Part shown: positions 5,535-55,188 of the stretch, one piece after another
How the letters are laid out: each line of letters opens with the position of its first letter
Position numbering within the stretch: position 1 is the stretch's first letter
Source: Pseudomonadota bacterium
GTDB taxonomy: Bacteria; Desulfobacterota; Desulfobacteria; Desulfobacterales; JBDRRP01
Direction of reading: 5' to 3'
Length of the DNA: 64,000 bases
Assembly: GCA_043825735.1 (NCBI GenBank)
Contig: JBDRRP010000071.1
Span: forward strand, 1-64,000
Position numbers and translations under genes: made by a program
The notes under the pieces: generated by a model
The model's database searches: none
What the model was told of the DNA's origin: nothing
Seen by the model: the letters and a program-made list of their open reading frames with translations, nothing else

Positions 5535-5568
5535 CTTGAACCCTCGACCCCTTGGACCCTTGAACCCT
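5535..5568. repeat. 8-nt degenerate tandem repeat (4 units)
   Basis: CTTGAACC CTCGACCC CTTGGACC CTTGAACC. Confidence 0.75.
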
Positions 5569-5587
5569 TCTTAGGCCGAATACCCAC

Positions 5588-25888: not shown

Positions 25889-26533
25889 ATGAATCAAGAG
25901 AGCGCGAATAATAACAACATTTACTGGCACAACGGTGAGGTGTCGCGAGAACTGCGGGAAAAGCTCCATGGGCACAAAGGCATACTCCTGTGGTTCACCG
26001 GCCTTTCATCATCTGGAAAATCCACAATCGCTCATGCCGTTGAGGGGTTGCTGCACAAAATGCGCTGCTCCACTTACGTTTTTGATGGTGACAACGTGCG
26101 TCACGGGCTCTGCAGCGACCTCGGGTTCAGCGAGAAAGACCGTCGGGAAAATATCCGCAGGATCGGCGAAATGTGTCATCTGTTTATTGACGCCGGTATC
26201 ATTGCCATCTCCGCCTTCATCTCGCCCTACCGGTCGGACCGGGCCCGGATCCGCGATCTGGTGGGCAGCGATCGATTCACAGAAATCCACGTGGACTGCC
26301 CGGTGGAAATTTGTGCGCAGCGCGACCCAAAGGGGAATTACAAGAAGGCCATGGCTGGAATTATTCACAATTACACCGGTGTGTCAGCCCCCTACGAGGC
26401 CCCCGAAACCCCAGATCTCAGAATTGAATCTCACCGGGTCAGCATTGATGACGCGGCGCAATCCGTCATCCGACTTCTAAAAGAACGTGGCTTGGCGCTG
26501 CCTATTGCAAAGCCCCCATCGTTCAGAAGATAA
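25889..26533 (+). CDS. cysC: Adenylyl-sulfate (APS) kinase
   Basis: WFTGLSSSGKSTIA, DGDNVRHGL, DLGFS..DR.ENIRR, FISPY, RDPKG.Y, TGVSAPYE. Confidence 0.96.
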   Translation: MNQESANNNNIYWHNGEVSRELREKLHGHKGILLWFTGLSSSGKSTIAHAVEGLLHKMRCSTYVFDGDNVRHGLCSDLGFSEKDRRENIRRIGEMCHLFIDAGIIAISAFISPYRSDRARIRDLVGSDRFTEIHVDCPVEICAQRDPKGNYKKAMAGIIHNYTGVSAPYEAPETPDLRIESHRVSIDDAAQSVIRLLKERGLALPIAKPPSFRR

Positions 26534-27157: not shown

Positions 27158-29335
27158 GTGCAGCAAGCCATCATTAAAAACGGCAAAGTTTTGACTGCGG
27201 CTGTCCCGGCACCGATCGTTTCGCCAGGGGCCCTGCTCATAAAGGTAGTGCGTTCCTGCATCAGTGCGGGGACCGAGCTTGCCGGCGCCCAGGCCAGCGG
27301 TAAGAGCTTGATCCGGCGCGCTTTGCAGCAGCCTGAAAACATCAGAAAAGCCTTCAACATGGCCCGTGCAGAGGGTTTTGTTAAAACGGCGCGCTTCATT
27401 AAAAGAAGCAAGGAATCAGGCCAACCAACCGGCTACTCAATTGCCGGGGTGGTCATCGGTATCGGTGACGGCGTGTCTGGATTTACTGTCGGCGACCGCG
27501 TCGCTGCGGCCGGCGCAGGGTTGGCCAATCATGCAGAATACGTCGATATCCCAAAAAATTTGGTCGTAAAAGTACCGGATGGCGTCGATGACAACGGCGC
27601 CGCCACCGTTGCCGTGGGCAGCATTGCCATGCACGGCGTCCGAAGGGCGGCGGTCCAATTGGGGGAATACGTCGTCGTATTCGGAACCGGGCTTTTGGGG
27701 CAGCTCGCCGTGCAGATGGTGACGGCGGCCGGTGGAAGAGTGATCGCCGTCGACATTGACGCGCGGCGCCTTGAAATGGCGACGCATTCAGGGGCCGAGA
27801 ACGCTTTCAATGCGGCAGATGCCGATTGCATCAACAGCGTGTTTCACGCTACGGGCGGCCACGGGGCGGACGCTGTTTTGTTTTGCGCCGCGACTAATGA
27901 TCCTCGCGCGCTTTCCGATGCGCTTTCCATGTGCCGCCGAAAAGGACGACTGGTGATGGTGGGCGTCTGGGGAAACGAGATCCGCAGGGAAGACCTGTAC
28001 GCGAAGGAGATCGATTTTCTGATATCGACCTCCTATGGACCGGGGCGCTATGACGACCGCTATGAACTGCTCGGGCAGGATTACCCATATGGATATGTGC
28101 GATGGACCGAGAACCGAAACATGCTGGAATATTTGCGTCTTCAGGCTCAAGGGCGAATCGACATAAAACCGATGCTGCACGCTGTCTTTCCGATCGAAAA
28201 CGTTCAGGAGGCCTTTACTTCGCTGGGCTCTGACGTCAAGCCGCTTCTGGTGTTGCTGGATTATGGCTGCAAGTTGCCGGATGGGTTCATTGGCGATAAA
28301 CCCGAAAACGGCAAACTGGCCTTTGGGCCGGCCGTAAGGAAGGTGTCCGGCAATCGCGTGCGTGTGGGGCTGATCGGTGCCGGGGAGTTCGCCCGGGCAA
28401 TCCATCTGCCGAACCTGTTGAAATTGAAAAACCAGTACCAGATCCGTGCGATCTGCAACCGGTCCGGGTTGAAGGCCCGGGAAACCGCGCAGCAGTGCGG
28501 CGCGGCATATGCCACTTCAGACTACCGTGAGATCATAGCCGATCCGGATGTGGATCTGGTGATGATCTGTACTCGGCACAACCTGCACGGCCAGATGGTA
28601 TTGGACAGTCTAAACGCCGGCAAGCATACATTCGTCGAAAAGCCGCTGTGCACCCGATTGGACGAACTGGAAAAAATCGAAGCGTTTTACGCGGTCAAGA
28701 CACCCGATGGTATCGACGAGGGCCTGGCGTGCAGCAAACCAATGCTGGCCGTGGGTTTCAACCGGCGTTTCTCGCCATACGCCCGGGAAATCCGCCAAAA
28801 GGTCGAGGGCAGATTGAATCCGCTCATGATCCACTACCGGATGAATGCCGGCTACATTCCTTACGGGCACTGGGTTCATACCGAAGAGGGCGGTGGGCGG
28901 ATTATCGGCGAGGCATGCCATATCATCGACCTTTTCTCTTATTTGATCGGAGCTCCCGTCAAAGCAATCAGCGCTTTCGACCTTTCGCCGATGACTGAAA
29001 GTATTCAGTCATCGGACAACAAGTCGGTGACTCTTGAATACGCGGACGGATCCGTGGCGGTGCTCCAGTACTTCAGCGTCGGTAGCAAAGATTTGCCAAA
29101 GGAGCGCCTTGAGCTGCATTTCGACGGAAAAACTATCGTGATGGATAATTACAAATCCATGCAGGGATTTGGAATTGACATAAATCAAGTCGGCCGACAG
29201 ATTATGGACAAAGGGTATTTGAACGAGCTGACTGAATTGGCTGAAAGTCTGAAGGGCGGTGGCGCCTTGTGGCCAATGTCTCCGAGATCCATTTTCGAAA
29301 CCACCCGGATATGCATTGAACTTTCCAAATGGTAA
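27158..29335 (+). CDS. Bi-domain oxidoreductase (MDR/Zn-ADH-like plus Gfo/Idh/MocA)
   Basis: ISAGTE, GTGLLG, SYGPGRYD, RWTENRN, second GLIGAG, VEKP, VGFNRRF, GEACH. Confidence 0.9.
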   Translation: MQQAIIKNGKVLTAAVPAPIVSPGALLIKVVRSCISAGTELAGAQASGKSLIRRALQQPENIRKAFNMARAEGFVKTARFIKRSKESGQPTGYSIAGVVIGIGDGVSGFTVGDRVAAAGAGLANHAEYVDIPKNLVVKVPDGVDDNGAATVAVGSIAMHGVRRAAVQLGEYVVVFGTGLLGQLAVQMVTAAGGRVIAVDIDARRLEMATHSGAENAFNAADADCINSVFHATGGHGADAVLFCAATNDPRALSDALSMCRRKGRLVMVGVWGNEIRREDLYAKEIDFLISTSYGPGRYDDRYELLGQDYPYGYVRWTENRNMLEYLRLQAQGRIDIKPMLHAVFPIENVQEAFTSLGSDVKPLLVLLDYGCKLPDGFIGDKPENGKLAFGPAVRKVSGNRVRVGLIGAGEFARAIHLPNLLKLKNQYQIRAICNRSGLKARETAQQCGAAYATSDYREIIADPDVDLVMICTRHNLHGQMVLDSLNAGKHTFVEKPLCTRLDELEKIEAFYAVKTPDGIDEGLACSKPMLAVGFNRRFSPYAREIRQKVEGRLNPLMIHYRMNAGYIPYGHWVHTEEGGGRIIGEACHIIDLFSYLIGAPVKAISAFDLSPMTESIQSSDNKSVTLEYADGSVAVLQYFSVGSKDLPKERLELHFDGKTIVMDNYKSMQGFGIDINQVGRQIMDKGYLNELTELAESLKGGGALWPMSPRSIFETTRICIELSKW

Positions 29336-29937: not shown

Positions 29938-31749
29938 TTGAACCTATACACGCTGCTGTGTGAAATAAAAAAGCACCTGCCCCGAAAGAGAAAAAAACAG
30001 CTTGTTTTCTTGCTGATGTGTATGTGCTTGGGCGCTCTGGTTGAAAGCGGTACACTAGGGTTGATAGCGATCTATGCGTCTGCCGTGAATGATACGGAAA
30101 CAATTTACCATTCACAGCGGGCGACCGTTGTTTTCAGGTATTTTGGCCAGTATGCGCCTGCAACACCAAAAGCTTTTTTCATAATGCTCAGTATTGTCGT
30201 TGTTTTGGCCATCGGTATCAAAAATGCGTTGAGTACCGGCCTGCAATATTTGATAGCGAAATTTGCGACCCTGGTGAGTGGCTTTTTCGGCGAAAAATTA
30301 GTCCGAGGTCTTTTGCTGATGCCCTATGAATGGCACCTGAGGCAAAATTCATCCGACCTGGTGACGACCTTTGCCTGGCGGGACCAGGTTGCCAATATAA
30401 TGCTCAACTGCCTGCAGTTTTCGATCGATTTCATATTGATATGTTTTCTTTTTTTCGGGCTGTTATTTATCAATCCAATTGTAACAACGGGTTTGATCCT
30501 GCTTGTAGGTGGGCCGGCATTCCTAATTTTCCGGGAAACCCGCCCACGAATTGACCGCCAGGCGGTAACTATTAAAGAAACCTCGATCCTCCTGAACCGG
30601 CAGGCTACACAGATTGTTCACGGCATAAAGGATATTAAAATGATAGCGCCCGACAATCTGATGGCAAATCTAAGTACACGATTGTACGCTTTGGCCAACA
30701 CTCAGGGGATGCAAGCCCTTTTCCTGAAGATGCCGCACAATATGATAGAGTTTATCGGCTTCTTCATGCTTTGTGGCACCATTTTGCTACTCAATCTGTA
30801 TGCTGAGATCTCCACCATTGAGATTACCGGTATTGCGGCCTTGCTAGCTGTAACTGCTTGGCGTGTTTTACCTGCGATTGTGAGAATAATTGCGAATCTG
30901 TCTGTCATCCGGGCCAATTTGCCGGTTGCCAGCCGGGTTTTGAAATTTGTTACCCTATTTGAGGAGAACACGTCTTCTCAGATTGCGGAAAATACCGGAG
31001 GTGTGCCGCCGTGTATTGAGCAGACGATCAGTGTCAGGGGGGTGTTTTTTTCCTATGAAGGCGCCACCGTCGAGTCTCTTTCGGATATAAACCTGGACAT
31101 CAACAAGGGTGAAAGCATCGGGATTATAGGCACTTCCGGGGCGGGGAAAAGCACTTTGGCCGATATTTTGATCGGTTTCCTGAAGCCGGTTCGAGGCACT
31201 ATATGGATCGATGGTAATAAACTGGGGGAAAATAAAAGTGTAAACTGGATGCGAAACATTGGCTATGTTGCACAGACTCCCTATATCTGCGACGATTCGC
31301 TGCTCGCGAATATTGCTCTTGAGCAGGGCGCCGAATTGGCTAACCGGGAATTTGCCATGGAGTGCTGCAAAATGGCCAACATTGATGATTTTTTAGGACA
31401 GCTGGCCGACGGCATTGACACTCAGATCGGCGAGCGGGGTGTTTTGCTCTCAGGGGGACAACGGCAGCGGGTTGCCATCGCGCGGGCCCTATACCGCAGG
31501 CCGAGCTTTATCGTCTTTGATGAAGCCACAAGCGCGTTAGACACCAAAAGTGAAAATGAAATCCAGAAAACCATTTTGCAGTTGCACGGGAAAATGACGA
31601 TGGTCCTTATTGCCCATCGGTTGAGTACTGTCGAGTACTGCGACCGAGTCGTATGGCTTGAAAAAGGAAGCGTGAAAATGGTCGGCAAGCCTGAAGCGGT
31701 TTTGCCTCGCTACGTTGATTCCATGGCCGTTGAGGAGAAGTCGGCATAA
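29938..31749 (+). CDS. ABC transporter permease/ATPase, PglK/MsbA-like glycan flippase
   Basis: N-terminal TM domain, GTSGAGKST, LSGGQRQR, VFDEATSALD, IAHRLST. Confidence 0.9.
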   Translation: MNLYTLLCEIKKHLPRKRKKQLVFLLMCMCLGALVESGTLGLIAIYASAVNDTETIYHSQRATVVFRYFGQYAPATPKAFFIMLSIVVVLAIGIKNALSTGLQYLIAKFATLVSGFFGEKLVRGLLLMPYEWHLRQNSSDLVTTFAWRDQVANIMLNCLQFSIDFILICFLFFGLLFINPIVTTGLILLVGGPAFLIFRETRPRIDRQAVTIKETSILLNRQATQIVHGIKDIKMIAPDNLMANLSTRLYALANTQGMQALFLKMPHNMIEFIGFFMLCGTILLLNLYAEISTIEITGIAALLAVTAWRVLPAIVRIIANLSVIRANLPVASRVLKFVTLFEENTSSQIAENTGGVPPCIEQTISVRGVFFSYEGATVESLSDINLDINKGESIGIIGTSGAGKSTLADILIGFLKPVRGTIWIDGNKLGENKSVNWMRNIGYVAQTPYICDDSLLANIALEQGAELANREFAMECCKMANIDDFLGQLADGIDTQIGERGVLLSGGQRQRVAIARALYRRPSFIVFDEATSALDTKSENEIQKTILQLHGKMTMVLIAHRLSTVEYCDRVVWLEKGSVKMVGKPEAVLPRYVDSMAVEEKSA

Positions 31750-31809: not shown

Positions 31810-32586
31810 ATGGGAAAAAATGTTGAAAGAATAGGCGGAACTTATTCGCACGATCAAGAGATGTGGGATCAATTGGAGGAAGTTGTAAAAGAAAGCGGTC
31901 ACCCGCTCAGGGATGTGCTCGAATCATTTCCGGTTTACGCTCGCCGCGTGAATCTGAGTCGATTTCTGGTACATTACGAAATCTTCAAAATGATCAAAGA
32001 TGTTCCAGGAAGTATAGTAGAATGCGGTGTTTACAGGGGTTCTAGCCTGTTGACCTTCGCAAAATTGCTTGAGATCTACTGCCCAGGAGACAGGACCAGA
32101 AAGGTTATCGGCTTTGATAATTTTGCGGGTTTCACCGAACTTAGCGAGGAAGATGGTGCAGAAGACCCTAACTGCTCTAAAGTCGTGGGAGGGTGGAACT
32201 CATCACCCTACTACAACGAACTGCTGAAACATATCGATATTTTTCACGCTGACAGTTTTATCCCCAGGGCTAAAAGAGTTGAACTCGTTGTAGGGAATCT
32301 TGAAGAGACCGCTACTGATTACCTTGAGAAGAATTCAGGGTTGCGTATATCACTTCTTCACCTGGATTGTGATGTTTATAAACCCACTATGGCTGCCCTG
32401 GAGGCATTTTATCCACTGGTGGTTCCCGGTGGAATTGTTCTTTTGGATGAATACGGAATGGCAGCCTGGGGCGGCGAGAGTGCCGCATTTGATGAGTACT
32501 TTGGGAAAGACACCAAGCACAAACTCAAGACGTTTCCGCTCAGTTCTACTCCGACTGCATACTTCATCAAAGGAGAGACGGTATGA
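31810..32586 (+). CDS. TylF/MycF/NovP-family O-methyltransferase
   Basis: VPGSIVECGVYRG, GFDNFAGF, LHLDCDVY, LLDEY. Confidence 0.88.
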   Translation: MGKNVERIGGTYSHDQEMWDQLEEVVKESGHPLRDVLESFPVYARRVNLSRFLVHYEIFKMIKDVPGSIVECGVYRGSSLLTFAKLLEIYCPGDRTRKVIGFDNFAGFTELSEEDGAEDPNCSKVVGGWNSSPYYNELLKHIDIFHADSFIPRAKRVELVVGNLEETATDYLEKNSGLRISLLHLDCDVYKPTMAALEAFYPLVVPGGIVLLDEYGMAAWGGESAAFDEYFGKDTKHKLKTFPLSSTPTAYFIKGETV

Positions 32587-33767
32587 GAATCTTTATGCGC
32601 GGGTTGAATGCCTGCGCTATGCGGAAGGCGGACATCGCTCGTTATAAGGACAGCCTCGTAGCGGCGGGACACGAGTTGGTCAATGACCCTGCCAAGAGCG
32701 ACACCGTTTTAGTATGGACCTGTGCTTTCAGACAGGACTATCGCGAAAACAGTATTCGCGTATTAAATGAATACAGGGATAAAAACAAGAAAAGAGTAGT
32801 AGCCTGCGGTTGTTTGCCTTCAATCAATCCGCAGATATTGGCTGAAAGGTTCGAGGGGGAAAGTTTCGAGTGGAAAAATGACCGGCAGGCACTGGCCAAA
32901 CTTTTTAATTCGAATCTGCCCGAAACCCAGCGCTACTTTGTTGAAAAGGCGATAGACATTCCCATTGAAGAATACAAGGCCCGGAATCCAGGTGTCAAAA
33001 CCACTCACTGTGATCAATTCGTAAAACTGTTTATCACTGAAGGCTGTAATTTTAAATGCACCTACTGCGCTGAAATCCTTGCATTCCCGCCATTTAAAAG
33101 TTTTCCCTTGGAAAGCGTCGTCAATAAATTTAAGAAAGTAATGAATGAATTCGGTGAGAAACGGGTCATTTTGCATGGCGACTGCGTTGGGGAATATGGA
33201 AAAGAAATTGGCAGCTCGATAGTTGAATTGATTGAAAATCTCCTATCGACTGCCTCTGGAGTAAAAATTGGTATCCGTAATCTTTACCCTGGAAATTTCA
33301 TAGAATATTATGACGAATTGATGCGTTTTATAAAGAATGGCGATTTGTTTCTGTTGGAAACCCCAATTCAGTCGGCATCAGATGATGTGTTGAAGCTTAT
33401 GGGGCGGCACTACAGACAGAGAGATCTGAAAAGAATATTTGACGGCCTTGTCGGCAGTGGATTCAAAGAGTTCGAAACTCATATCCTTGTTGGTTACCCA
33501 TCGGAAACCGAAGCGCAGTTCCAGGAAACCGTTGATTTTATCACTCGGTACCGTCCTAAATATGTTCTCATTAGTGGCTACATGGGTTCTCCGCTGTTGA
33601 AATCAGCGGATCTGCCTGGGCAGATCGATGAAGAAATAATCCGCGCTCGAGTACTTGAAGCTTATGAAGCCATTAACAAAGAGGGGGTCATCTGTAATTA
33701 CAACATGTGCGATCTGATCAAGGAAAGGTTCGAGTCGTCGTATGTGGACGGCCTGATATATCAATAG
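32583..33767 (+). CDS. Radical SAM methylthiotransferase-like protein (MiaB/RimO/MtaB fold) lacking the TRAM domain
   Basis: N-terminal Cys triad (NACAMR, WTCAF, CGCLP), EGCNFKCTYC, PIQSAS..VLKLMGRHY, ILVGYPSETE..F.ET. Confidence 0.85.
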   Translation: MRIFMRGLNACAMRKADIARYKDSLVAAGHELVNDPAKSDTVLVWTCAFRQDYRENSIRVLNEYRDKNKKRVVACGCLPSINPQILAERFEGESFEWKNDRQALAKLFNSNLPETQRYFVEKAIDIPIEEYKARNPGVKTTHCDQFVKLFITEGCNFKCTYCAEILAFPPFKSFPLESVVNKFKKVMNEFGEKRVILHGDCVGEYGKEIGSSIVELIENLLSTASGVKIGIRNLYPGNFIEYYDELMRFIKNGDLFLLETPIQSASDDVLKLMGRHYRQRDLKRIFDGLVGSGFKEFETHILVGYPSETEAQFQETVDFITRYRPKYVLISGYMGSPLLKSADLPGQIDEEIIRARVLEAYEAINKEGVICNYNMCDLIKERFESSYVDGLIYQ

Positions 33768-33815: not shown

Positions 33816-35057
33816 ATGCCTAAATTTTCAATTATAATACCAACCACTCGGGCCCATTACTTGCCGTATTCCCTTAGAAGTGCCCTAAACCAGGATTATG
33901 ATGATTATGAAGTGATCGTCGTGGATAACCAGGCTGAAGGCGCAGATGCCGTTGTCAGGGAGTTTGCTGATCCCAAAGTGTCCTGTGTGCACACGCCTGA
34001 AAAACTGGCGATGTCATACAACTGGGAGTTTGGATTAAGACACGCAAAAGGTGAGTATATCACTTTTTTGGGTGACGATGACGTATTTATCCCTCAGTTG
34101 CTATCAACCGTGGCGGATGCCATTACACAATACCCTTCAGTTAATATTTTCAACTGGAAATGGGGCAGCTATATCTATCCATCCTTTCCTGTCCCGGAAC
34201 TGAGAAATCAACTGACCTGGAGTGACTCAAGTGACGGGCTTTATAAGGTTGAAAGCGCAGAGGTCCTAAGAGATTTCTATAACCCGGTCGACATCTACAG
34301 GTACTCTGAAAGAAAACGGTTGCTCCCGAGCATATTTCATGCCTGCTGCCACCGGCAGATTATTGAGACTGCACAGGAAAAGGGCGGCAAATTCTTTTTC
34401 CCAAGCTGCCCTGATTTTTCCTCCGCTTTTGTGTCGCTGGCTTTCAGTGAAGAGGAAGTGTTGATCGACAAGCCGATGGTCATCTATTCTTCATCTTTTG
34501 ACAGCAATGGCGTTTGCATGGTGGGGGAACGCGGGAAAATCGATGATTTTCTAAAAGAGTACAAAGATGAAATTTACAGGACGACTCCCCTGCAGACGCG
34601 AAAAGTAACTCATAACGGGATAGCGGATACAATGCTGATAACCCAGGCCGCATTCCCCGCAGAATTGGGCAGTTTTGAATTTGGCTGGGTAAGTTATTTT
34701 AATTGTTGCTACCGCGAGATTGTGATCCTTGAAGAAAATGGCCTTGATATGTCGGAGGACCGCAGAGAGTTCGAAAAGGTCCTCGCCGGACAACCTGATG
34801 ATATCCGCTTCGAAGTCCAGCAATGGATCATCAACCAGGGCAGCATGACGACCGGCAAACAAAGCAGGGTGCGTCGGGTGGCCAGATATGTTCAGGATAA
34901 GTTTCCGGCCTTAAGGCGTTTCCGTCAGAAAATGAACTCTATGCGAACGTCTTCCAGAAGCAGGCCTGCCGGCGTGATCGACGCCCGGGAAAAAGGACTG
35001 GACTCAATATACGATTGTTCAGTGTACGTGGGAAAAGTGATCAGAGGGCAAGCCTAA
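33816..35057 (+). CDS. Glycosyltransferase family 2
   Basis: FSIIIPT, EVIVVDN, AKGEYITFLGDDD. Confidence 0.9.
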   Translation: MPKFSIIIPTTRAHYLPYSLRSALNQDYDDYEVIVVDNQAEGADAVVREFADPKVSCVHTPEKLAMSYNWEFGLRHAKGEYITFLGDDDVFIPQLLSTVADAITQYPSVNIFNWKWGSYIYPSFPVPELRNQLTWSDSSDGLYKVESAEVLRDFYNPVDIYRYSERKRLLPSIFHACCHRQIIETAQEKGGKFFFPSCPDFSSAFVSLAFSEEEVLIDKPMVIYSSSFDSNGVCMVGERGKIDDFLKEYKDEIYRTTPLQTRKVTHNGIADTMLITQAAFPAELGSFEFGWVSYFNCCYREIVILEENGLDMSEDRREFEKVLAGQPDDIRFEVQQWIINQGSMTTGKQSRVRRVARYVQDKFPALRRFRQKMNSMRTSSRSRPAGVIDAREKGLDSIYDCSVYVGKVIRGQA

Positions 35058-35115
35058 ATGAACAGCTGAGAACGACCTCTCATTTTAAATGCAAAATTAT
35101 TTCGGGAGAAGTGAA

Positions 35116-35898
35116 ATGCAGGTTGTTATACTTTGTGGCGGGCTTGGGACCCGGTTGCGGGAAGAGACCGAATTCAGGCCGAAGCCCATGGTCAATATCG
35201 GGAGCCGCCCGATACTATGGCACATCATGAAGATATATGCCCACTACAATATCAGTGAGTTCGTTCTTGCCTTGGGCTATAAAGGTGAAATGATCAAAGA
35301 CTATTTTATTCATTATGAGATAATGAACAACGACGTCACTATTGAACTGGGCAGTCCTAAATCCATGCATCTTCACAATTGCCATGATGAATCCGGGTGG
35401 AAAATCACTCTAGCCAATACGGGCGACAAAGCGATGAAAGGGGCAAGGTTAAAAAAAGTTGAAAATTATATTCATGGTGAAAATTTTATGCTCACCTATG
35501 GAGATGGGGTTGCGGATATCAATATAGAATCCTTGATAAAGTTCCATAAGCAGCATGGCAAAATTGCTACTGTCACCGGGGTCAATCCGGCGGCCCAGTT
35601 CGGCGAATTAAAAATCAACGGTGACAGCGTTCAAGCTTTTTCGGAAAAACCCAAAATCTCTGAAAGAGGATATGTTAACGGCGGCTTTTTTGTTTTCAAA
35701 AGAGCGATCTTTGATTACCTGGAGATTAATGATGCATGTGACCTCGAATATGGTGTCTTGGAAAAATTGGCTGCCGAAGGTGAGCTAAAGGTATACAAGC
35801 ACCAGGGATTTTGGGCGTGCATGGATACAATCAGGGACATGGAGTACCTGAACAGCCTATGGGGGCAGAATAGAGCTCAGTGGAAGATATGGAAATAA
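35116..35898 (+). CDS. rfbF: Glucose-1-phosphate cytidylyltransferase
   Basis: ILCGGLGTRLREET..RPKPMV, LTYGDGVAD, NGGFFV, GFWACMDT.RD. Confidence 0.95.
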   Translation: MQVVILCGGLGTRLREETEFRPKPMVNIGSRPILWHIMKIYAHYNISEFVLALGYKGEMIKDYFIHYEIMNNDVTIELGSPKSMHLHNCHDESGWKITLANTGDKAMKGARLKKVENYIHGENFMLTYGDGVADINIESLIKFHKQHGKIATVTGVNPAAQFGELKINGDSVQAFSEKPKISERGYVNGGFFVFKRAIFDYLEINDACDLEYGVLEKLAAEGELKVYKHQGFWACMDTIRDMEYLNSLWGQNRAQWKIWK

Positions 35899-35907
35899 CA
35901 AACAGGC

Positions 35908-37026
35908 ATGTTCAACAACATCTATAAAAACAGAATAGTGCTTATAACCGGGCATACCGGTTTCAAAGGGTCGTGGCTGGCTCTGTGGCTCTGTGAACTG
36001 GGCGCCCGGGTCTTTGGGTATGCTCTAAAGCCGCCTACTGAACCGAACCACTACGATTTGATCAATTTGGGAATCGAAGGTGTGCTTGAAGACATTCGCA
36101 ACGCTGATGCAGTAAACAAGGCCGTAAAGTCTTATCGACCAGAGATTGTTTTCCATCTTGCCGCGCAATCGCTTGTACGCGAATCCTATCGGTCCCCTGT
36201 CGAAACCTTCGACACGAATGTCATGGGGACGGTGAACGTACTTGAAGCTTGTCGTTTGTCTGGTTCCGTTAAGGCGGTCGTCAACATTACCAGCGACAAA
36301 TGCTACGAAAACACAGAGCAAGGGGCCAGCAGTTACAGGGAAACCGCCCGACTCGGCGGATATGACCCGTACAGTGCCTCAAAAGGGTGTGCCGAAATTG
36401 TCACAAGTGCTTATCTGCGATCATTTTTCCCCCCGGAAGATTATCTGAAGACACATACAACCCTTATAGCAAGTGCCAGGGCGGGCAATGTCATTGGTGG
36501 GGGCGACTGGGCCAAAGATCGCCTTGTTCCGGACATTGTTAAGTCTGCAGCAAGAGGTGAAAAAGTCATTATCCGAAATCCTAGAGCTGTACGACCCTGG
36601 CAGCATGTCCTGGAACCACTGAGCGGTTACCTGCGTCTCGGGCAACGACTGCTTGAGGGCGAAATCGCATGTGCAGGTGCCTGGAATTTCGGCCCTGACG
36701 ATAGGGGGCACCTGACCGTCAAGGAAGTTTTGGATGCGCTAAGAGAGAACTGGAGTGCAATCGATTTTAGGATTCATGACATCAATCCGGCAGCACCTCA
36801 TGAAGCCGGCACTCTTATGCTCGACTGCACCAAGGCTCGCAGGGAACTCAACTGGCGGCCAACCTGGAAAAGTGCGGAAATGATAAAAGAAACGGCACAG
36901 TGGTATCGGGATTATTATACGCACCGATATGTGTCCAGCCACCAACAATTGCAAGCGTACATCCGGGATGCCGCCGCACAAAAACTTGTTTGGTCAAGAA
37001 ATGAAAATAACTCCGACCCGGATTGA
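35908..37026 (+). CDS. rfbG: CDP-glucose 4,6-dehydratase
   Basis: TGHTGFKGSWL, HLAAQSLVR, TSDKCY, DPYSASK, RAGNVIGGGDW, RPWQHVLEPL. Confidence 0.95.
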   Translation: MFNNIYKNRIVLITGHTGFKGSWLALWLCELGARVFGYALKPPTEPNHYDLINLGIEGVLEDIRNADAVNKAVKSYRPEIVFHLAAQSLVRESYRSPVETFDTNVMGTVNVLEACRLSGSVKAVVNITSDKCYENTEQGASSYRETARLGGYDPYSASKGCAEIVTSAYLRSFFPPEDYLKTHTTLIASARAGNVIGGGDWAKDRLVPDIVKSAARGEKVIIRNPRAVRPWQHVLEPLSGYLRLGQRLLEGEIACAGAWNFGPDDRGHLTVKEVLDALRENWSAIDFRIHDINPAAPHEAGTLMLDCTKARRELNWRPTWKSAEMIKETAQWYRDYYTHRYVSSHQQLQAYIRDAAAQKLVWSRNENNSDPD

Positions 37027-37552
37027 ACATCTTCAAACAGTTGAAATCGAACCTTTCCAGGATGAAAGGGGCCGTTTCGCTCGCATTTTTTGCATAAGAG
37101 AGATGGAAAGGCTACTAGGCGAAAGGGCAGTGTGCCAGGTCAATCAGTCCGTAACTGTGAACAAAGGTGCTTTGCGCGGTATGCATTTTCAATATCCCCC
37201 CGCAGCCGAAATGAAACTGATAAAGTGTACGCGGGGTGCGGTCTTCGATGTGGCCATTGATATCAGACAAAACTCACCAACTTTTCTGAAATGGCACGGC
37301 GAAATTCTGTCGGCCGACAACAATAAAATGATCTGTATCCCGGAAGGGTGCGCACACGGCTTCCAGACGCTTGAATACGGTTCTGAACTGATCTATTTCC
37401 ACACGAATTTCTATGCACCGACACTTGAAGGCGGGATTCGGTTTGATGACCCTCGGATAGCAATCGACTGGCCCATTGAAATTGCGGAGATATCCGACCG
37501 GGACCGCTCCCATAAATATTTGACTAACAGTTTCAGTGGTATTGCCATATGA
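37001..37552 (+). CDS. NDP-4-keto-6-deoxyhexose 3,5-epimerase (RmlC/RfbC family)
   Basis: DERGRF, LRGMHFQ, DVAIDIR, IPEGCAHGFQTL. Confidence 0.92.
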   Translation: MKITPTRIEHLQTVEIEPFQDERGRFARIFCIREMERLLGERAVCQVNQSVTVNKGALRGMHFQYPPAAEMKLIKCTRGAVFDVAIDIRQNSPTFLKWHGEILSADNNKMICIPEGCAHGFQTLEYGSELIYFHTNFYAPTLEGGIRFDDPRIAIDWPIEIAEISDRDRSHKYLTNSFSGIAI

Positions 37553-38808
37553 ACTGCAGATTTTGTGGCACCCGTTTACAACACGAATTTATCGATATGG
37601 TCAACGCGCCGCCATCAAATTCATTTCTAACCCGGCGTGGTTTGGATGAACCCGAAACATTTTATCCACTGAAACTTTATGTCTGCGAGAGCTGTTTTCT
37701 AGTCCAGATCGACGAGTACAAGCGGTCGAATGAGATTTTCAGCGAGGATTATATCTATTATTCGTCTTTCTCGAAAACTTGGCTCGATCACGCGCGTACC
37801 TATGTCGGCATGATCTGCGAGCGTTTCGGTTTTGACAAAAATTCGTTTGTTATCGAAATAGCATCCAACGATGGCTACCTGCTGCAAAACTTTGTGGCTA
37901 AGGGCATTCCATGTCTGGGAATCGAACCATCCTGCAAAGTCGCCGAGGTGGCCCGGGGAAAAGGGATCGATGTCATTACACGGTTTTTTTGTGCCGATCT
38001 GGCTGGGCGCCTTGTCGCTGAAGGCCGAAGCGCTGATTTAATGATTGGCAATAATGTCTTGGCGCATGTCCCGGATATAAACGATTTTGTTGCTGCCCTG
38101 AAACTATGCTTGAATGAACGCGGAGTGGTAACGCTTGAGTTTCCCCACCTGCTGCAGTTGATTGAAAAATGTCAGTTCGACACGATTTACCACGAACATT
38201 TCTCATACCTTTCATTGCTGGCCGCGCGGCGCATTTTTGTTAGTCATGGGCTGGACTTGTTCGACGTTGAAGAATTGGAAACCCATGGCGGGTCACTGCG
38301 GGTGTATCTCAAACACGTCGAGGATCGATCCAGGCAGGTTGTTCCCGCAGTCGACGATTTGATGCGACGCGAAGAGGCGCTTGGGATGCGATTCCTGGAT
38401 TACTACAGGGGATTTCAGGTCCGGGCGGACAACGCCAAATATGCGCTATTGACGTTTCTGATCGAAAAAAAACTCGCTGGACAAACAGTTGCAGCTTATG
38501 GTGCAGCCGCCAAGGGGAATACCCTTTTGAATTATTGCGGCGTTAAGAAAGATTTGATTGAATTCGTAGTGGATGCCTCTCCGCACAAACAGGGCAAATT
38601 CCTGCCGGGAAGCCACATCCCCGTGGTGAACGAAAGCCGGATTAAAGACTGCCGGCCAGATTACGTGCTGATCCTGCCTTGGAATATTCGACGGGAAATT
38701 ATAGATCAGCTTGACTATATCAGTGATTGGGGGGGCAAATTCATTTCGCTTCATGAAGGTCGGTTCGTGGTGACTGCCGGGAGATCAAATAAGGGGTTGG
38801 CGCTGTGA
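37549..38808 (+). CDS. NDP-sugar C-3 methyltransferase (Zn-binding, class I SAM)
   Basis: CRFC...CESC, EIASNDG, NNVLAH, FDTIYHEH, THGGSLR, YGAAAKG, LPWN. Confidence 0.9.
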   Translation: MNCRFCGTRLQHEFIDMVNAPPSNSFLTRRGLDEPETFYPLKLYVCESCFLVQIDEYKRSNEIFSEDYIYYSSFSKTWLDHARTYVGMICERFGFDKNSFVIEIASNDGYLLQNFVAKGIPCLGIEPSCKVAEVARGKGIDVITRFFCADLAGRLVAEGRSADLMIGNNVLAHVPDINDFVAALKLCLNERGVVTLEFPHLLQLIEKCQFDTIYHEHFSYLSLLAARRIFVSHGLDLFDVEELETHGGSLRVYLKHVEDRSRQVVPAVDDLMRREEALGMRFLDYYRGFQVRADNAKYALLTFLIEKKLAGQTVAAYGAAAKGNTLLNYCGVKKDLIEFVVDASPHKQGKFLPGSHIPVVNESRIKDCRPDYVLILPWNIRREIIDQLDYISDWGGKFISLHEGRFVVTAGRSNKGLAL

Positions 38809-38890
38809 TAGGCAAAATAATACAATCACAAGTGAAACTGGTGATTAATTCGCATTGCTTGGATTCGTTCAAACTGCTTTCGATAGAGCT

Positions 38891-39673
38891 ATGAGTGTTT
38901 TGCAGATAAAACCAGTTAAGAAGATAGTCATTTCACAACCACTATTTCTACCTTGGAAAGGCATGTTCGATCAGACCCGCATGGCCAAGGCTTATGTTTT
39001 TCGTGATGAGGCCCAGTTGCCTATCAGCCACGGAAGTAAAAAAGGATTCATCGTCAGGGTGCAGATTAAAATTGAAAATGGCTGGAAATGGCTTACCGTG
39101 CCTATTAGAAAAATTAAAGACCGGACACAGTCTATAAGGGAAACCCGTTTTGCCGATGACCACTGGCGCAAACAACACATAACCGACATTCGAAATGCCT
39201 ATAAGAGAGCGCCATTTTTCGAAGATATTTTTGAAACGGTTGTACAACCGATATACAGTTTTAATACGGAATTTTTGTGCGAATTCAATATCCATGCGTT
39301 TAAACTGTTGTGTGATCGGATAGGAATATCAACCAATTTTTACTTTGCCTCCGAACTTCCTTCCGCACAGTCGGAAGCTCGTTCAAGTGAGTATGTCCTG
39401 GAAATATGTCAACAGTTCGATGCCAAAGAGTATATCACGGCACATGGGGCACGCAATTATCTGGATCACGAGCTTTTTGAAAGGGCCGGAGTCAGGGTTA
39501 TGTATATGGCTTATAACCTGACTCCGTATCCCCAGATAAACGGGCCGTTTACCCCCTACGTGTCAATACTGGATTTGCTGTTCAATGTGAATCGAGATGC
39601 ATCGGATTATCTCGGGGCCGGCTGTACCTATTGGAAAGAAGACAGACAATTAAATTTAGAAGGGACGGATTGA
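38891..39673 (+). CDS. WbqC-family protein (putative glycyl/acyl transferase)
   Basis: ISQPLFLPW.G, WLTVP, AY.RAPFF, YPQ, SILDLLFN. Confidence 0.88.
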   Translation: MSVLQIKPVKKIVISQPLFLPWKGMFDQTRMAKAYVFRDEAQLPISHGSKKGFIVRVQIKIENGWKWLTVPIRKIKDRTQSIRETRFADDHWRKQHITDIRNAYKRAPFFEDIFETVVQPIYSFNTEFLCEFNIHAFKLLCDRIGISTNFYFASELPSAQSEARSSEYVLEICQQFDAKEYITAHGARNYLDHELFERAGVRVMYMAYNLTPYPQINGPFTPYVSILDLLFNVNRDASDYLGAGCTYWKEDRQLNLEGTD

Positions 39674-39678
39674 AAAGG

Positions 39679-40422
39679 ATGCAAGCATTTCCGGAAATCG
39701 CCAATACTATGCAGAATGTTAAGGCCATGGCCGCCGATGCGGATATTCAGTCTATCCGCAAAAGACTTTACGCGCACATTATTGAGTATAAATACGCTTA
39801 TAATTTTACTTGGTACGGCAGGCCGATTATTCAATTTCCGGAAGATATACTGGCTCTTCAGGAAATTATCTTAACCGTAAAACCGGATTTGATTTTGGAA
39901 ACAGGAATCGCTCATGGTGGTTCGCTCATTTTTTCGGCCTCCATGCTTGAACTGTTGGGAGGTGACAGACGGGTCCTGGGGGTCGATATCGATATTCGGG
40001 AACATAACCGCATCGAAATAGAAAAACACCCCTTGTTCAAAAGGATAACAATGCTGCAAGGCTCTTCAGTCGACCGGCAGATTGTTGAAACTGTACATAA
40101 GATTGCCGCAGGCCGGAGGAAAGTGATGGTTATTCTGGATTCAAATCATTCTCATGCTCATGTTGCTGCCGAATTGGAGGCTTATGCGGGTATCGTTGAC
40201 AAAGGCAGCTACCTGGTAGTTTTCGATACGGTCATCGAAGATGTCGATGATGGGGCGTTCCCTGATCGAAACTGGGGCAAGGGAAACAATCCCAAGACTG
40301 CCGTGCGTGAATTCCTGGCAAAGAATGATCGCTTTGCAGTGGACAAGGATATTGAGGACCGTTTGTTAATCACAGTCGCCCCCGGGGGATATTTAAAATG
40401 CGTGAAGGATAAATCACTATGA
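39679..40422 (+). CDS. CmcI-family (rhamnosyl O-methyltransferase-like) SAM-dependent enzyme
   Basis: YNFTWYGRPIIQFP, KPDLILETGIAHGGS, ILDSNHSH.HV..EL, GNNPKTAV. Start may be TTG at 39670. Confidence 0.88.
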   Translation: MQAFPEIANTMQNVKAMAADADIQSIRKRLYAHIIEYKYAYNFTWYGRPIIQFPEDILALQEIILTVKPDLILETGIAHGGSLIFSASMLELLGGDRRVLGVDIDIREHNRIEIEKHPLFKRITMLQGSSVDRQIVETVHKIAAGRRKVMVILDSNHSHAHVAAELEAYAGIVDKGSYLVVFDTVIEDVDDGAFPDRNWGKGNNPKTAVREFLAKNDRFAVDKDIEDRLLITVAPGGYLKCVKDKSL

Positions 40423-41321
40423 GTGACGGTATGAATTATATTCCTAAACACTTGCAAATCGAACCCACCAACGGCATTTGCTCGTCCAGATGCACGATGT
40501 GCACTTTTGAAGACTGGACCCGTAAGCCGCACACAATGACCAACGAAACCTTCAAGCGCATTCTGGAAAAATTCAAACCCTATACGCAGGCGATCAACTA
40601 CCTCACTTTGCACGGTTGCGGTGAACCGCTGATGGACAGGCAGTTGATTGCGAAGGTGGCCTTAGCCAAAGAGATGGGGTTTAATGGCATCGGGTTTGCT
40701 ACCAACTGTACGCACCTTAATGCAAGCACGGCCAAGGGGTTGATTAAGGCCGGGTTGGACACGGTATTGTGCAGTATAGACGGGACGCGGAAAGAGACAC
40801 ACGAGGCTATCAGGGTCGGTACTAGTTTTGAATCTGTCGTAAACAATGTTAAGGATTTTATAAAGATTAGGAACGAAAGCGGACACACTAAAGTGATTGT
40901 TCGTTTTATTAGGCAGGAATTGAACAAGGCGGAATGGCCTGAATTTTACGAATACTGGTCAGCGCAGGTAAACCCGGATTTTGGTGATTTTGTGACCAAG
41001 TTCGATGTCCATAACTGGGGCTCGGCCTTAGAAGATTACAAGGGAAAGGATGTAAACGACGAACTTTCGATTGAAAAACTGGTCTGCCAGGATCTGTTTG
41101 AAAGGCTGTGGATTTTTTCAGATGGGCATCTGGGCTTTTGCACGGCTGATGACAATGGTTTCTTTGATTTCGGTAGTGTGCTGGAGCAGGACCCGATCGA
41201 GATGTACAACAACGAAACCTTCAACCATTACCGGCAGATGATGGAAAAAGGGTGTATCGCCGAACTGGAGCACTGTAATAACTGTACAATCCCCAGATCG
41301 AGAGCTTTGAAAGAAACATGA
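40419..41321 (+). CDS. Radical SAM protein with SPASM/Twitch domain
   Basis: CSSRCTMC, GEPL, SIDG, C-terminal C...GHLGFC...CNNC. Confidence 0.88.
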   Translation: MSDGMNYIPKHLQIEPTNGICSSRCTMCTFEDWTRKPHTMTNETFKRILEKFKPYTQAINYLTLHGCGEPLMDRQLIAKVALAKEMGFNGIGFATNCTHLNASTAKGLIKAGLDTVLCSIDGTRKETHEAIRVGTSFESVVNNVKDFIKIRNESGHTKVIVRFIRQELNKAEWPEFYEYWSAQVNPDFGDFVTKFDVHNWGSALEDYKGKDVNDELSIEKLVCQDLFERLWIFSDGHLGFCTADDNGFFDFGSVLEQDPIEMYNNETFNHYRQMMEKGCIAELEHCNNCTIPRSRALKET

Positions 41322-52417: not shown

Positions 52418-52555
52418 CGATACTATTCTGAACCATGTAAGCAATTTACGGTTAAAAATGGAATATAACTATAGCAAATTTCATTTCTTCCTAAATATCA
52501 ATTCAACCCAATAACCAATTATATTGGTAACCTACTTGCTCGAGGGGGATTTTTG

Positions 52556-53578: not shown

Positions 53579-53579
53579 C

Positions 53580-54716: not shown

Positions 54717-54803
54717 CAGCGGGTCCAAAGATGGTTTTTTAAAAGGGGTCTGTTACACCCCGAGCCGGTTAGTGAGACAACAAAATAATACAGGGGTGAG
54801 TCG

Positions 54804-55148
54804 ATGAACGAACTGTCGCCATTCAAGGTCTCAGAAAGCGCGACCTTATTGCAGGCTGTAGAGAAGATTGAAAAGAACAGATCCAGGGCCGCAATCGTAG
54901 AATCGGACGGCAAAGTGATCGGCGTGATCAGCGAGGGAGATATCATGCGTGCGCTGCTGCAGGGCGCCAATATCCACTCCCCCATTGAATCGTTCATCAT
55001 CTATTCTTTTAAATACCTCACAGATCGGGACCTGCCCCAGGCTCGCAAACTGTTTGCCAAACACCTTATAACGCTGCTGCCGGTGCTCGATGACGACTTC
55101 AGACTTGTCGGCGTCATCACCCTGCGTGACATATTGAATGCCGTTTAG
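54804..55148 (+). CDS. Stand-alone CBS-pair protein
   Basis: GVISEGDIMRALL, LPVLDD...VGVIT. Confidence 0.8.
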   Translation: MNELSPFKVSESATLLQAVEKIEKNRSRAAIVESDGKVIGVISEGDIMRALLQGANIHSPIESFIIYSFKYLTDRDLPQARKLFAKHLITLLPVLDDDFRLVGVITLRDILNAV

Positions 55149-55188
55149 CGCCGCCAGTCCTTCCCTGACACGACCATTATAAATTACC

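Follow-up and report, generated by a model that had tools for sequence, protein, structure and literature searches.

The radical SAM gene and its glycan locus

The stretch of DNA analysed here (the window, 64,000 nucleotides) carries a gene for a radical SAM protein of 394 residues, situated directly behind the gene for a TylF-like methyltransferase and within a glycan locus composed of the following features.

25889–26533: APS kinase
29938–31749, plus strand: PglK/MsbA-like ABC exporter, permease and ATPase fused (ABC_tran)
31810–32586, plus strand: TylF-family (metal-dependent, class I) methyltransferase, 258 residues (PF05711, 61 bits, cut-off 23)
32569–32577, plus strand: Shine-Dalgarno-like AAAGGAGAG, within the end of the TylF-like gene and 5 nt before the radical SAM ATG
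32583–33767, plus strand: TRAM-less radical SAM protein of the MiaB/RimO superfamily, 394 residues (UPF0004 and radical SAM core)
33816–35057, plus strand: family 2 glycosyltransferase, GT2 (PF00535, 79.9 bits)
35089–35898, plus strand: glucose-1-phosphate cytidylyltransferase, RfbF (TIGR02623, 340 bits, cut-off 300)
35908–37026, plus strand: CDP-glucose 4,6-dehydratase, RfbG (TIGR02622, 471 bits, cut-off 278)
36929–37552, plus strand: RmlC-like cupin of the sugar 3,5-epimerase/isomerase family (PF00908, 191 bits; TIGR01221, 157 bits, cut-off 156)
37549–38808, plus strand: nucleotide-sugar C-methyltransferase, Methyltransf_13/14 (PF08484, 206 bits; PF08421, 79.5 bits)
38855–39673, plus strand: WbqC-like protein (PF08889, 212.6 bits)
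39631–40422, plus strand: CmcI/rhamnosyl O-methyltransferase family protein (PF04989, 302 bits)
40419–41321, plus strand: second radical SAM protein in this locus, carrying a SPASM domain (PF04055, 61 bits; PF13186, 22.6 bits)
41318–42451, plus strand: DegT-family sugar aminotransferase (PF01041, 383 bits; LegC family 307 bits, below cut-off)
42683–43519: sulfotransferase

The exporter scored 255 bits with NF050066 (PglK) and 248 bits with TIGR02203 (MsbA), both below the respective cut-offs, and the RmlC-like gene probably starts downstream of the ATG listed. The stop codon of the TylF-like gene and the start codon of the radical SAM gene overlap in the ATGA at 32583–32586, an arrangement that, together with the Shine-Dalgarno-like AAAGGAGAG, fits a putative translational coupling of the two genes. 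This overlap and the succession of GT2 and rfbFG genes had been pointed out in the initial annotation and were found again in the sequence and in the Pfam and NCBIfam matches. The APS kinase and the sulfotransferase were considered as a supply of sulfur to the radical enzyme, and this idea was rejected, as both point to O-sulfation through PAPS instead.

Domain composition and the absence of TRAM

Pfam assigned UPF0004 (PF00919) to residues 11–90 of the 394-residue protein (49.2 bits, cut-off 27) and Radical_SAM (PF04055) to residues 151–320 (71.3 bits, cut-off 29.5). The three cysteines of the UPF0004 domain, Cys11, Cys47 and Cys77, align with their canonical counterparts and are invariant in an alignment of 106 family sequences, and so is the CxxxCxxC motif of the radical SAM core (C155-x3-C159-x2-C162). 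With P261-I-Q-S-A-S and V-G304-Y-P306-S-E308-T also present, the three-cysteine N-terminal domain, the CxxxCxxC and the QSxS and VGxPxET motifs described in the initial annotation are confirmed by Pfam, alignment and sequence alike. The B12-binding domain PF02310 was not matched at E ≤ 0.01 in Pfam, the N-terminal domain being the one matched by UPF0004, and NCBIfam models of B12-dependent radical SAM proteins gave weak partial matches of about 39–41 bits. A pseudogene or a chance open reading frame at 32583–33767 can be ruled out, since homologues were found down to E 1e-215 with all cofactor ligands conserved. The ESM Atlas yielded nothing beyond unnamed clusters labelled 'Radical SAM/UPF0004', about 395 residues in length. 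One DNA run from a groundwater metagenome contains 0.79 of the sampled words from positions 31810–33767 of the window, and no RNA run is listed as containing this segment.

MiaB, MtaB and RimO attach -SCH3 to tRNA or to protein S12 and use their TRAM domain for substrate binding. Within the 394-residue protein no TRAM family was matched by Pfam at E ≤ 0.01; this negative result is weak on its own because the MiaB and MtaB of the same genome likewise lack a Pfam TRAM match at E ≤ 0.001, only RimO matching TRAM_2, and Pfam was therefore dropped as a stand-alone test. In the NCBIfam alignment with TIGR00089, residues 11–357 of the protein correspond to profile positions 9–352 of 429. The tail following the GxPxET motif has a median length of 83 residues in the family (motif found in 36 of 38 rows) versus 129 in the canonical enzymes (25 of 36 rows). 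The AlphaFold2 model, predicted with a pLDDT of 95.1 and a pTM of 0.92, ends in a helix (350–366), a four-residue strand and a further helix (378–384) without any β-barrel. Its residues 1–370 align to residues 2–368 of the 451 of MtaB, 18–391 of the 441 of MiaB and 3–366 of the 421 of RimO, and structural superposition left the TRAM parts of these three chains without a counterpart. Profile coverage, tail length and predicted structure thus uphold the earlier view that the protein leaves no room for a TRAM domain, and the radical SAM protein encoded at 32583–33767 is without one.

Relation to MiaB, MtaB and RimO

The nearest solved structures are those of MtaB, MiaB and RimO (Foldseek E 1e-20 to 4e-24; VIA Z 29–31 over about model residues 1–370), and the next folds follow at VIA Z 21–25. 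By sequence profile the top match in the PDB is RimO of T. maritima (4JC0; E 7e-50, profile 1–362 to chain 1–353), the methylthiotransferase of Asp88 in ribosomal protein S12. It likewise possesses a UPF0004 domain with three cysteines, a CxxxCxxC core and the PxQSxS and GFPxET motifs, and it superimposes on the model with a VIA Z of 30.1 and an rmsd of 3.2 Å over 332 residues; however, it has a C-terminal TRAM of its own (the chain continues unmatched to 421–438), acts on a protein, and forms a clade outside of which the 394-residue protein is placed. MiaB and MtaB/e-MtaB (tRNA A37; 7MJV–7MJZ, 9A6D) have the two-cluster architecture and the fold in common with the protein but carry TRAM, and residues invariant in them are changed in the family (N14R, N45W, RG168–169FP). 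Of the 42 positions conserved to at least 85% in 36 canonical MiaB, MtaB, RimO and e-MtaB sequences, 24 hold the same residue in the family, including G154, Y161, S173, Y205-G206, P261/Q263, M273, R275, G304-F-P-x-E308 and R356. The near-invariant residues replaced are, in addition to N14 (to Arg), N45 (to Trp) and R168-G169 (to Phe-Pro), R230 (to Ala or Gly), F331 (to Ser) and also T339, from which it follows that the active site between the two clusters has been remodelled in the family. The residues lining this pocket are R14, W45, F168-P169, D200 and H300.

None of the curated models accommodates the protein: it scored 180.8 bits with the subfamily model TIGR00089 (cut-off 251), 104.5 with the MiaB equivalog TIGR01574 (355.3), 138.9 with MtaB TIGR01579 (357.05), 130.5 with RimO TIGR01125 (356.95) and 163.4 with e-MtaB TIGR01578 (314.7), the last being the best equivalog-type score. 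The genome encodes canonical MiaB (477 bits, cut-off 355), MtaB (412 bits, 357) and RimO (424 bits, 357) elsewhere, each above its equivalog cut-off, so that the protein is not the sole copy and represents a fourth paralog.

Evolutionary relatedness and distribution

In the evolutionary tree the family of the 394-residue protein (39 rows, about 392 residues) forms a clade with an SH-aLRT support of 100 and a stem of 0.62, disjoint from the clade of the canonical TRAM-bearing enzymes (36 rows, SH-aLRT 99). The protein is thus nested in none of MiaB, RimO and MtaB, and belongs to a distinct family outside the TRAM-bearing clade. The homologues are auto-annotated as MtaB, MiaB or CDKAL1, labels that are very probably wrong.

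The family does not stand alone, as the superfamily contains many lineages without TRAM, a point absent from the initial annotation. The other MiaB/RimO-like lineages of this kind (P0168–P0240, loci L046–L087) comprise proteins of about 360–430 residues with UPF0004 and Radical_SAM, their TIGR00089 alignments stop at positions 351–369 of 429, and none exceeds an equivalog cut-off. As in the family, they have arginine at position 14 (73%); they differ in being only 23–33% identical to the 394-residue protein and in their heterogeneous genomic contexts. A search for longer or fused forms of the family itself, weak as a negative, gave none at E ≤ 1e-30, and the long distant relatives P0179 and P0244 are non-family TRAM-less domains fused to B12 radical SAM modules. 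There is no curated family model that covers the protein, and characterisation is so far lacking for family members and TRAM-less relatives alike.

Among the best 80 of 162 confirmed loci, 37 orthologous and 42 more distant ones were counted. The former scored 457–612 bits on the family profile, apart from two trimmed by contig ends (301 and 325 bits), and the latter 150–270 bits. The 37 orthologous loci in this sample represent roughly a dozen phyla, with two archaea among their sources, and all belong to metagenome-assembled genomes of uncultured organisms. Within its own phylum the family is present in two of 201 sampled genomes, the source genome included, which fits an accessory gene and not a part of the translation machinery.

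Genomic context and the methyltransferase partner

In these best 80 of 162 loci, which are not phylogenetically independent, so that the counts over 37, 42 and 33 loci have to be read with that in mind, the flanks as fetched contain a TylF-like gene at 32 of the 37 orthologous loci versus 0 of the 42 distant ones. Sixteen of the counted loci had gone into the profile used for this count (A3), but a tblastn search with the TylF protein of the window arrived at the identical 32 of 37. A close TylF orthologue occurs in 20 of the 37, directly adjacent in 18 and either upstream or downstream. Pfam scanning of three open reading frames on each side (173 in all) in 33 orthologous loci from the same sample revealed a sugar-modification family among the neighbours in 31. 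These neighbours include a split transketolase (17 loci), a B12-binding radical SAM protein (16), an SDR epimerase (12), FkbM (7), DegT (6) and RmlC-like proteins (6), and glycosyltransferases too. One locus from the Desulfovibrionaceae (L009) shares with the window RfbF, RfbG, RmlC-like, C-methyltransferase, TylF, CmcI and DegT genes around the radical SAM gene. Homologues of the protein are accordingly strongly tied to sugar-modification loci and the distant relatives are not; the conserved partner of the family is the TylF-like methyltransferase, rather than the GT2 and rfbFG genes, a point that the initial annotation did not make.

The TylF-like protein of the window matches positions 89–232 of the 264 of the PF05711 profile, and its residues E71-x-G73, D103, H184-x-D186-x-D188 and D213, which presumably bind SAM or metal, are invariant in 17 orthologues. 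Complex prediction of the radical SAM protein (A2) with the TylF-like protein (A3) gave an ipSAE of 0.00 in both runs, which were made without controls.

This context bears on whether the protein could still be a methylthiotransferase of tRNA or protein that has dispensed with TRAM, recognises its substrate via another protein and lies in a glycan locus by chance. The automatic labels of the homologues and the e-MtaB model as the top equivalog-type match would agree with such a role; however, that score amounts to roughly half its cut-off, canonical MiaB, MtaB and RimO are encoded in the same genome, the TylF-partnered context recurs across many phyla in the sampled loci, and the family is scarce within its phylum. 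We regard this explanation as very improbable. Because the TylF-partnered sugar-modification context is recurrent, the substrate is instead very likely a nucleotide sugar or a glycan, and not tRNA or S12.

Proposed reaction

Taken as a whole, the evidence places the protein in a distinct, previously uncurated TRAM-less family of the methylthiotransferase type, whose substrate is very likely a deoxy or branched sugar, either nucleotide-activated or bound in a glycan, and neither tRNA nor S12. The complete proposal, with the reaction described below, is given an even chance. Insertion of sulfur or of a methylthio group, suggested by analogy because both cluster cysteine triads and the SAM-binding motifs are retained, appears slightly less than evenly probable as the outcome. 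On the model of MiaB and RimO, the [4Fe-4S] cluster of the radical SAM core (Cys155/159/162) would split SAM to yield a 5'-deoxyadenosyl radical, which would remove hydrogen from an sp3 carbon of the sugar that is not activated. This carbon might be that of a 6-deoxy methyl or deoxy CH2 group, of a C-methyl or two-carbon branch, or of an O-methyl group. Sulfur of the auxiliary [4Fe-4S] cluster (Cys11/47/77), most likely in methylated form, could then capture the substrate radical to give a thioether (-SCH3) sugar. The coupled TylF-like methyltransferase would perform an adjacent step on the same sugar, either O-methylating a neighbouring hydroxyl or supplying or completing the group handled by the radical enzyme; in one variant, the radical enzyme may functionalise the very methyl or O-methyl group that the TylF-like protein has introduced.

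Canonical methylthiotransferases, which use two SAM for the methylthiolation of a C–H bond and methylate the cluster-bound sulfur themselves, need no separate methyltransferase, and the TylF-like protein as an obligatory partner is therefore left unexplained by the canonical mechanism. It would be accounted for if the radical SAM enzyme inserted sulfur only, to give a thiol or thiosugar that is S-methylated by the TylF-like protein or used for another linkage; the nearly constant adjacency of a methyltransferase (in L033 a CmcI-type gene, which would act likewise, lies directly downstream of the radical SAM gene) and the overlapping start and stop codons in the window are in keeping with this division of labour. 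Nevertheless, both TylF and CmcI carry family annotations as O-methyltransferases, canonical enzymes of this fold complete the methylthio group unaided, and the SAM-binding motifs are retained in the family; this route is considered improbable.

A sugar could also be acted on by radical chemistry without any transfer of sulfur, the N-terminal cluster serving substrate binding or electron transfer. The reaction might in that case be an epimerisation, a dehydration or deoxygenation, a dehydrogenation, C–C bond formation or rearrangement, or alkylation of a methyl or O-methyl group. To our knowledge, chemistry of such kinds is what every radical SAM enzyme so far characterised from a sugar pathway performs (DesII, BtrN, AprD4, GenK). 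Two enzymes among the structural neighbours of the model are of interest in this respect: AprD4 (VIA Z 21.5, in a structure with its sugar substrate), a diol dehydratase, which acts on an aminoglycoside sugar, and CysS, which alkylates a methoxy group. The remodelled active site, the B12 radical SAM genes beside the gene in 16 of the 33 scanned loci and the fusion of P0179 and P0244 to B12 radical SAM modules lend themselves to the same explanation, and the last two features suggest iterative tailoring. On the other hand, AprD4 and the class B methylases TsrM, TokK, CysS and MgmA, although they likewise combine a Rossmann-like N-terminal domain with a radical SAM barrel (Z 17–25), either are devoid of the three-cysteine UPF0004 auxiliary cluster or bind cobalamin instead, whereas the 394-residue protein has UPF0004 and no PF02310. 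The methylthiotransferases are nearest by a wide margin (Z of 30 versus 21–25), and the three auxiliary-cluster cysteines do not vary in the 106 sequences. We know of no enzyme of the MiaB/RimO fold with an activity other than methylthiolation. The substrates of methylthiotransferases named in the available part of PMC10702137 are only tRNA A37 and ribosomal protein S12. The retained auxiliary-cluster cysteines do not prove sulfur insertion; sulfur-free chemistry on a sugar is nevertheless considered rather unlikely.

Significance

The methylthioxylofuranose (MTX) of mycobacteria has its origin in the methylthio-ribose moiety of SAM/MTA metabolism, and is not known to be made by a radical SAM methylthiotransferase. 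As a thioether sugar, the MTX of mycobacterial lipoarabinomannan is of the same product type as the one proposed here and, according to the part of PMC12088412 available, no other thioether sugar is known from glycans of bacteria. We know of no chemical product for which the family would account. According to PMC10702137, the enzyme that forms the methylthio group in 17²-methylthio-F430 has yet to be found. Among the papers listed from the CC-licensed PMC and bioRxiv library, judged mainly by titles and abstracts, none describes an enzyme of the methylthiotransferase type with a sugar or glycan as its substrate. It is a bolder and distinctly tentative suggestion that the family would be the first of methylthiotransferase-type radical SAM enzymes with a small-molecule substrate, placing -SCH3 on a sugar with a dedicated TylF-like partner.

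A model specific for the family could correct the automatic annotation of its homologues as MtaB, MiaB or CDKAL1. If the proposed reaction is true, many uncultured anaerobes would carry thioether sugars on their surface, beyond the MTX of mycobacteria, and the loss of TRAM would mark a general shift within the superfamily, away from macromolecules and towards metabolites as substrates. Surface glycans bearing a thioether would offer a rare chemical handle, that of mycobacterial MTX having been used for selective labelling (PMC12088412, in the part available). A TRAM-less family residing in sugar operons would widen the methylthiotransferase class to metabolites, and it would provide a concrete candidate with which new sulfur chemistry of glycans can be put to the test.

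Domain composition and predicted structure

The open reading frame at 32583–33767 (+) encodes a protein of 394 amino acids with UPF0004 at residues 11–90 and Radical_SAM at residues 151–320 (Pfam). Residues C11, C47, C77, C155, C159 and C162 are invariant in an alignment of 106 sequences of its family (orthologs of about 392 amino acids), in agreement with the three-Cys N-terminal domain and radical SAM Cys motif described in the initial annotation. The top NCBIfam model is TIGR00089 (MiaB/RimO subfamily), with 180.8 bits against a cut-off of 251 and an alignment spanning profile positions 9–352 of 429 only. The equivalog scores, e-MtaB 163.4, MtaB 138.9, RimO 130.5 and MiaB 104.5 bits, are all far under their cut-offs, and neither NCBIfam nor Pfam holds a family-level model for the family.

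The protein had also been claimed to lack the TRAM domain of the canonical methylthiotransferases (MiaB, MtaB, e-MtaB and RimO). A Pfam scan found no TRAM family in it, a negative that is an unreliable test because the bona fide MiaB and MtaB of the same genome are also unmatched at E ≤ 0.001 and only its RimO has a match, to TRAM_2. In the AF2 model (pLDDT 95.1, pTM 0.92; 106-sequence alignment), the core is followed by a helix (350–366), a four-residue strand, a helix (378–384) and nothing else. VIA-align places model residues 1–370 on residues 2–368 of 451 in MtaB (Z 30.8), 18–391 of 441 in MiaB (Z 30.3) and 3–366 of 421 in RimO (Z 30.1), and the TRAM barrels of these three chains are unmatched in the model. 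The top three Foldseek hits are MtaB, MiaB and RimO as well, and a profile search of PDB sequences aligned profile positions 1–362 to RimO 4JC0 (E 7e-50). The median number of residues after the GxPxET motif is 83 in the family versus 129 in the canonical enzymes. Model, structural alignments and tail length agree and settle the claim: the protein lacks a TRAM domain.

Evolutionary relationships

A word-indexed protein search with the studied protein returned 173 proteins at E ≤ 0.001, and an exhaustive representative search 180 cluster representatives at E ≤ 1e-30. Among the 120 matches listed of the 173, which are 311–420 amino acids long, PF04055 and PF00919 occur together in 119 and PF04055 alone in one, and no TRAM family is annotated; names, where given, are the generic 'radical SAM protein' or tRNA-enzyme labels (MtaB, MiaB, CDKAL1).

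The maximum-likelihood tree (IQ-TREE quick search, LG+G4, SH-aLRT support alone, 115 rows) comprised 38 family members, the 36 nearest non-family matches, four archaeal e-MtaB, five other archaeal short forms and, drawn from 14 further genomes of the phylum, 11 MiaB, 11 MtaB and 10 RimO; it omits a RimO locus with no complete ORF (L117), a short fragment (L132) and the three canonical copies of the own genome, for which NCBIfam supplied the classification. The family, together with one archaeal ORF identical to the homologous protein P0032, forms a clade (support 100, stem 0.62), and a second clade, separate from it, holds the 36 canonical enzymes (support 99). The root is midpoint only, and the two splits are disjoint under any root, so that the studied protein falls outside MiaB, RimO and MtaB. 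Nor is its gene a sole copy, since MiaB (477 bits), MtaB (412) and RimO (424) are encoded elsewhere in the genome, each over its equivalog cut-off. Neither result speaks against the earlier reading of the protein as a candidate sugar-modifying homolog, and judged by its sequences the family is distinct and no degenerate copy of any of them. Although TRAM domain, score cut-off and clade placement all set it outside MiaB, MtaB, RimO and the TIGR00089 subfamily, it still resembles them structurally in how the enzyme works.

The nearest non-family relatives (127–160 bits to the studied protein) are likewise short, and in the midpoint-rooted tree such relatives branch as several lineages that lie between the canonical clade and the family. 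When 71 non-family relatives were scanned at E ≤ 1e-70, 29 matched TIGR00089 alone, 41 matched nothing and one (P0187) matched TIGR00089 together with MtaB and e-MtaB, both of the latter under cut-offs; none reached an equivalog cut-off, and where TIGR00089 matched, the alignment ran no further than profile positions 351–369 of 429. By sequence comparison, the studied family is thus one among many TRAM-less lineages. The other such MiaB/RimO-like lineages form a broad set (loci L046–L087, proteins P0168–P0240, about 360–430 amino acids). Long distant relatives are fusions in metagenomic proteins with TRAM-less UPF0004/radical SAM modules: a B12-binding radical SAM with one such module (P0179), five radical SAM domains with four B12-binding matches and a SPASM domain (P0244), and MurB_C with two modules (P0177). 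At three Thermoplasmatales loci (L048, L056, L066), the TRAM-less relative lies in a conserved block with thiolase, short-chain dehydrogenase, GNAT acetyltransferase and 2-hydroxyglutaryl-CoA dehydratase D-component, a context very different from the glycan one.

Genomic context

Nearly all genes between about 25.9 kb and the end of the window are co-directional and glycan-related. Features with coordinates are:

25889–64000, co-directional glycan locus, about 38 kb
27158–29335, 725-aa fusion of zinc-type alcohol dehydrogenase and GFO/IDH/MocA oxidoreductase, at the locus head
31810–32586 (+), TylF-like methyltransferase (TylF family, Pfam)
37549–38808 and 46992–48251, two Methyltransf_13/14 C-methyltransferases
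40419–41321, second radical SAM enzyme (SPASM type), between a CmcI-like methyltransferase and DegT
52553–55932, NeuB/NeuC/cytidylyltransferase set, nonulosonic acid

The locus begins with APS kinase, MarR, the ADH/GFO fusion, NUDIX and a PglK/MsbA-like ABC exporter. The TylF-like gene, the studied gene, GT2, RfbF (glucose-1-phosphate cytidylyltransferase), RfbG (CDP-glucose 4,6-dehydratase) and an RmlC-like protein follow, RfbF and RfbG both over equivalog cut-offs. The start of the studied gene shares bases with the upstream stop codon (gtATGAg), and AAAGGAGAG sits five bases 5' of it; the ATGA overlap with a TylF-type methyltransferase and the downstream GT2 and rfbFG were therefore correctly read at the outset. 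Further on lie a C-methyltransferase, WbqC, CmcI, the SPASM protein and DegT; sulfotransferase, UDP-sugar dehydrogenase, epimerase and FkbM; the second C-methyltransferase, GT1, acetyltransferase and a second DegT; NeuB-like, NeuC (over cut-off) and cytidylyltransferase; and finally more methyltransferases and GT4. Besides the two C-methyltransferases the locus holds at least eight methyltransferase genes, as well as APS kinase and sulfotransferase. The SPASM protein matches NCBIfam models only weakly, these being models of metalloenzyme maturases (94 bits against a cut-off of 380), and SPASM radical SAM genes adjoin the family at loci L041 and L045 too. Among 201 genomes sampled from the phylum, two matched the family profile (E ≤ 1e-70), own genome counted, and G+C is 45–50% at 30–44 kb versus 53–63% at 8–24 kb, which fits an accessory, mobile glycan-island gene.

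A scan of genome contigs gave 162 confirmed relatives, the best of which represent 79 distinct loci. Orthologous loci number 37 (L009–L045; 457–612 bits on the family profile, but 301 and 325 for two truncated ones), and the other 42 score 150–270 bits. All 37 come from metagenome-assembled genomes, which by their record titles include Desulfovibrionaceae, Geobacteraceae, Desulfomonilaceae, Syntrophorhabdus, Magnetococcales, Rhodospirillales, Rhodobacterales, Pirellulales, Sedimentisphaerales, Omnitrophota, Methylomirabilia, Anaerolineaceae, Dehalococcoidales, Fibrobacterota, Chlorobium, Victivallaceae and, among archaea, Ca. Methanoperedens and one Woesearchaeota archaeon.

The fetched flanking sequence contains a TylF-like gene at 32 of the 37 orthologous loci versus none of the 42 others (tblastn with the window TylF; profile). 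A close TylF ortholog (at least 360 bits) occurs in 20 of the 37 and directly adjoins the family gene in 18, mostly just 3' of it; the window and L009 have it on the 5' side, and at L022 it is divergent. No TylF-like gene was found at five loci: L017, L041, L033, where a CmcI-type methyltransferase occupies its place, and L036 and L042, both ending at contig edges. The Desulfovibrionaceae locus L009 carries two family members in tandem (5275–8515), a TylF-like gene beside each, and its RfbF, RfbG, RmlC-like, C-methyltransferase, CmcI and DegT genes are syntenic with the window.

Neighbours were scanned with Pfam, three ORFs per side, in 33 orthologous loci (173 ORFs), omitting L014, L022 and L036 (gene not isolated by ORF calling) and L032 (size). 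Split transketolase was found in 17 of the 33, B12-binding radical SAM in 16, SDR epimerase/dehydratase in 12, FkbM methyltransferase in 7, and DegT, RmlC-like and glycosyltransferase in 6 each. At least one of these occurs in 31 of 33 loci (exceptions L023 and L044), these neighbour and co-occurrence counts being phylogenetically non-independent; glycan loci thus recur around the homologs, as the proposed sugar modification implied. The split transketolase (L010, L012, L015, L016, L019–L021, L024–L027, L029–L031, L035, L037, L039), with N-terminal and pyrimidine-binding/C-terminal subunits in two genes, lies just 5' of the family gene, often with SDR epimerase next, an arrangement suggestive of a pathway for a two-carbon-branched sugar; the window has no split transketolase. 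In the control (39 distant loci, 140 ORFs, two on each side), the neighbours included no TylF and were heterogeneous, with thiolase/SDR/GNAT/HGD-D in Thermoplasmatales and FeoB/DnaE in Actinobacteria; some control loci have glycosyltransferases, FkbM or B12 radical SAM genes nearby.

Active site and possible reaction

Of 42 positions at least 85% conserved in the canonical enzymes, 24 keep their residue in the family, among them both Cys triads and the SAM-binding motifs; D200 and H300 are also present. Near-invariant canonical residues near the cluster ligands are swapped for family-invariant ones (N14 to R, N45 to W, R168-G169 to F-P). This pattern may be read as cofactor machinery that was kept and a substrate pocket that was rebuilt.

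On the precedent of MiaB and RimO, the enzyme would most likely abstract a hydrogen from an unactivated carbon in a branched or deoxy sugar, and the resulting radical would then be captured by (methyl)sulfide bound to the auxiliary cluster. The target is unlikely to be a carbinol carbon, because the product would be an unstable hemithioketal. Target methyl groups could plausibly come from branch-forming enzymes and the ever-present methyltransferase, candidate branch formers being the C-methyltransferases of the window and of L009 and, at other loci, split transketolase or B12 radical SAM. The canonical mechanism leaves the need for a partner methyltransferase unexplained, and two further readings are kept for this reason: the radical SAM enzyme may insert sulfur that the separate methyltransferase S-methylates afterwards, or it may perform radical chemistry without sulfur.

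In the passages of PMC10702137 that concern them, only tRNA and S12 are named as methylthiotransferase substrates, and the enzyme making methylthio-F430 is stated as unknown. A full-text search of openly licensed papers found no description of a methylthiotransferase-type enzyme acting on sugars. The sulfur chemistry of the studied enzyme, drawn from analogy, is an unproven candidate; the protein itself is a real, well-defined and previously unmodelled variant of the methylthiotransferase-type enzymes, and its substrate is very likely a sugar or glycan.
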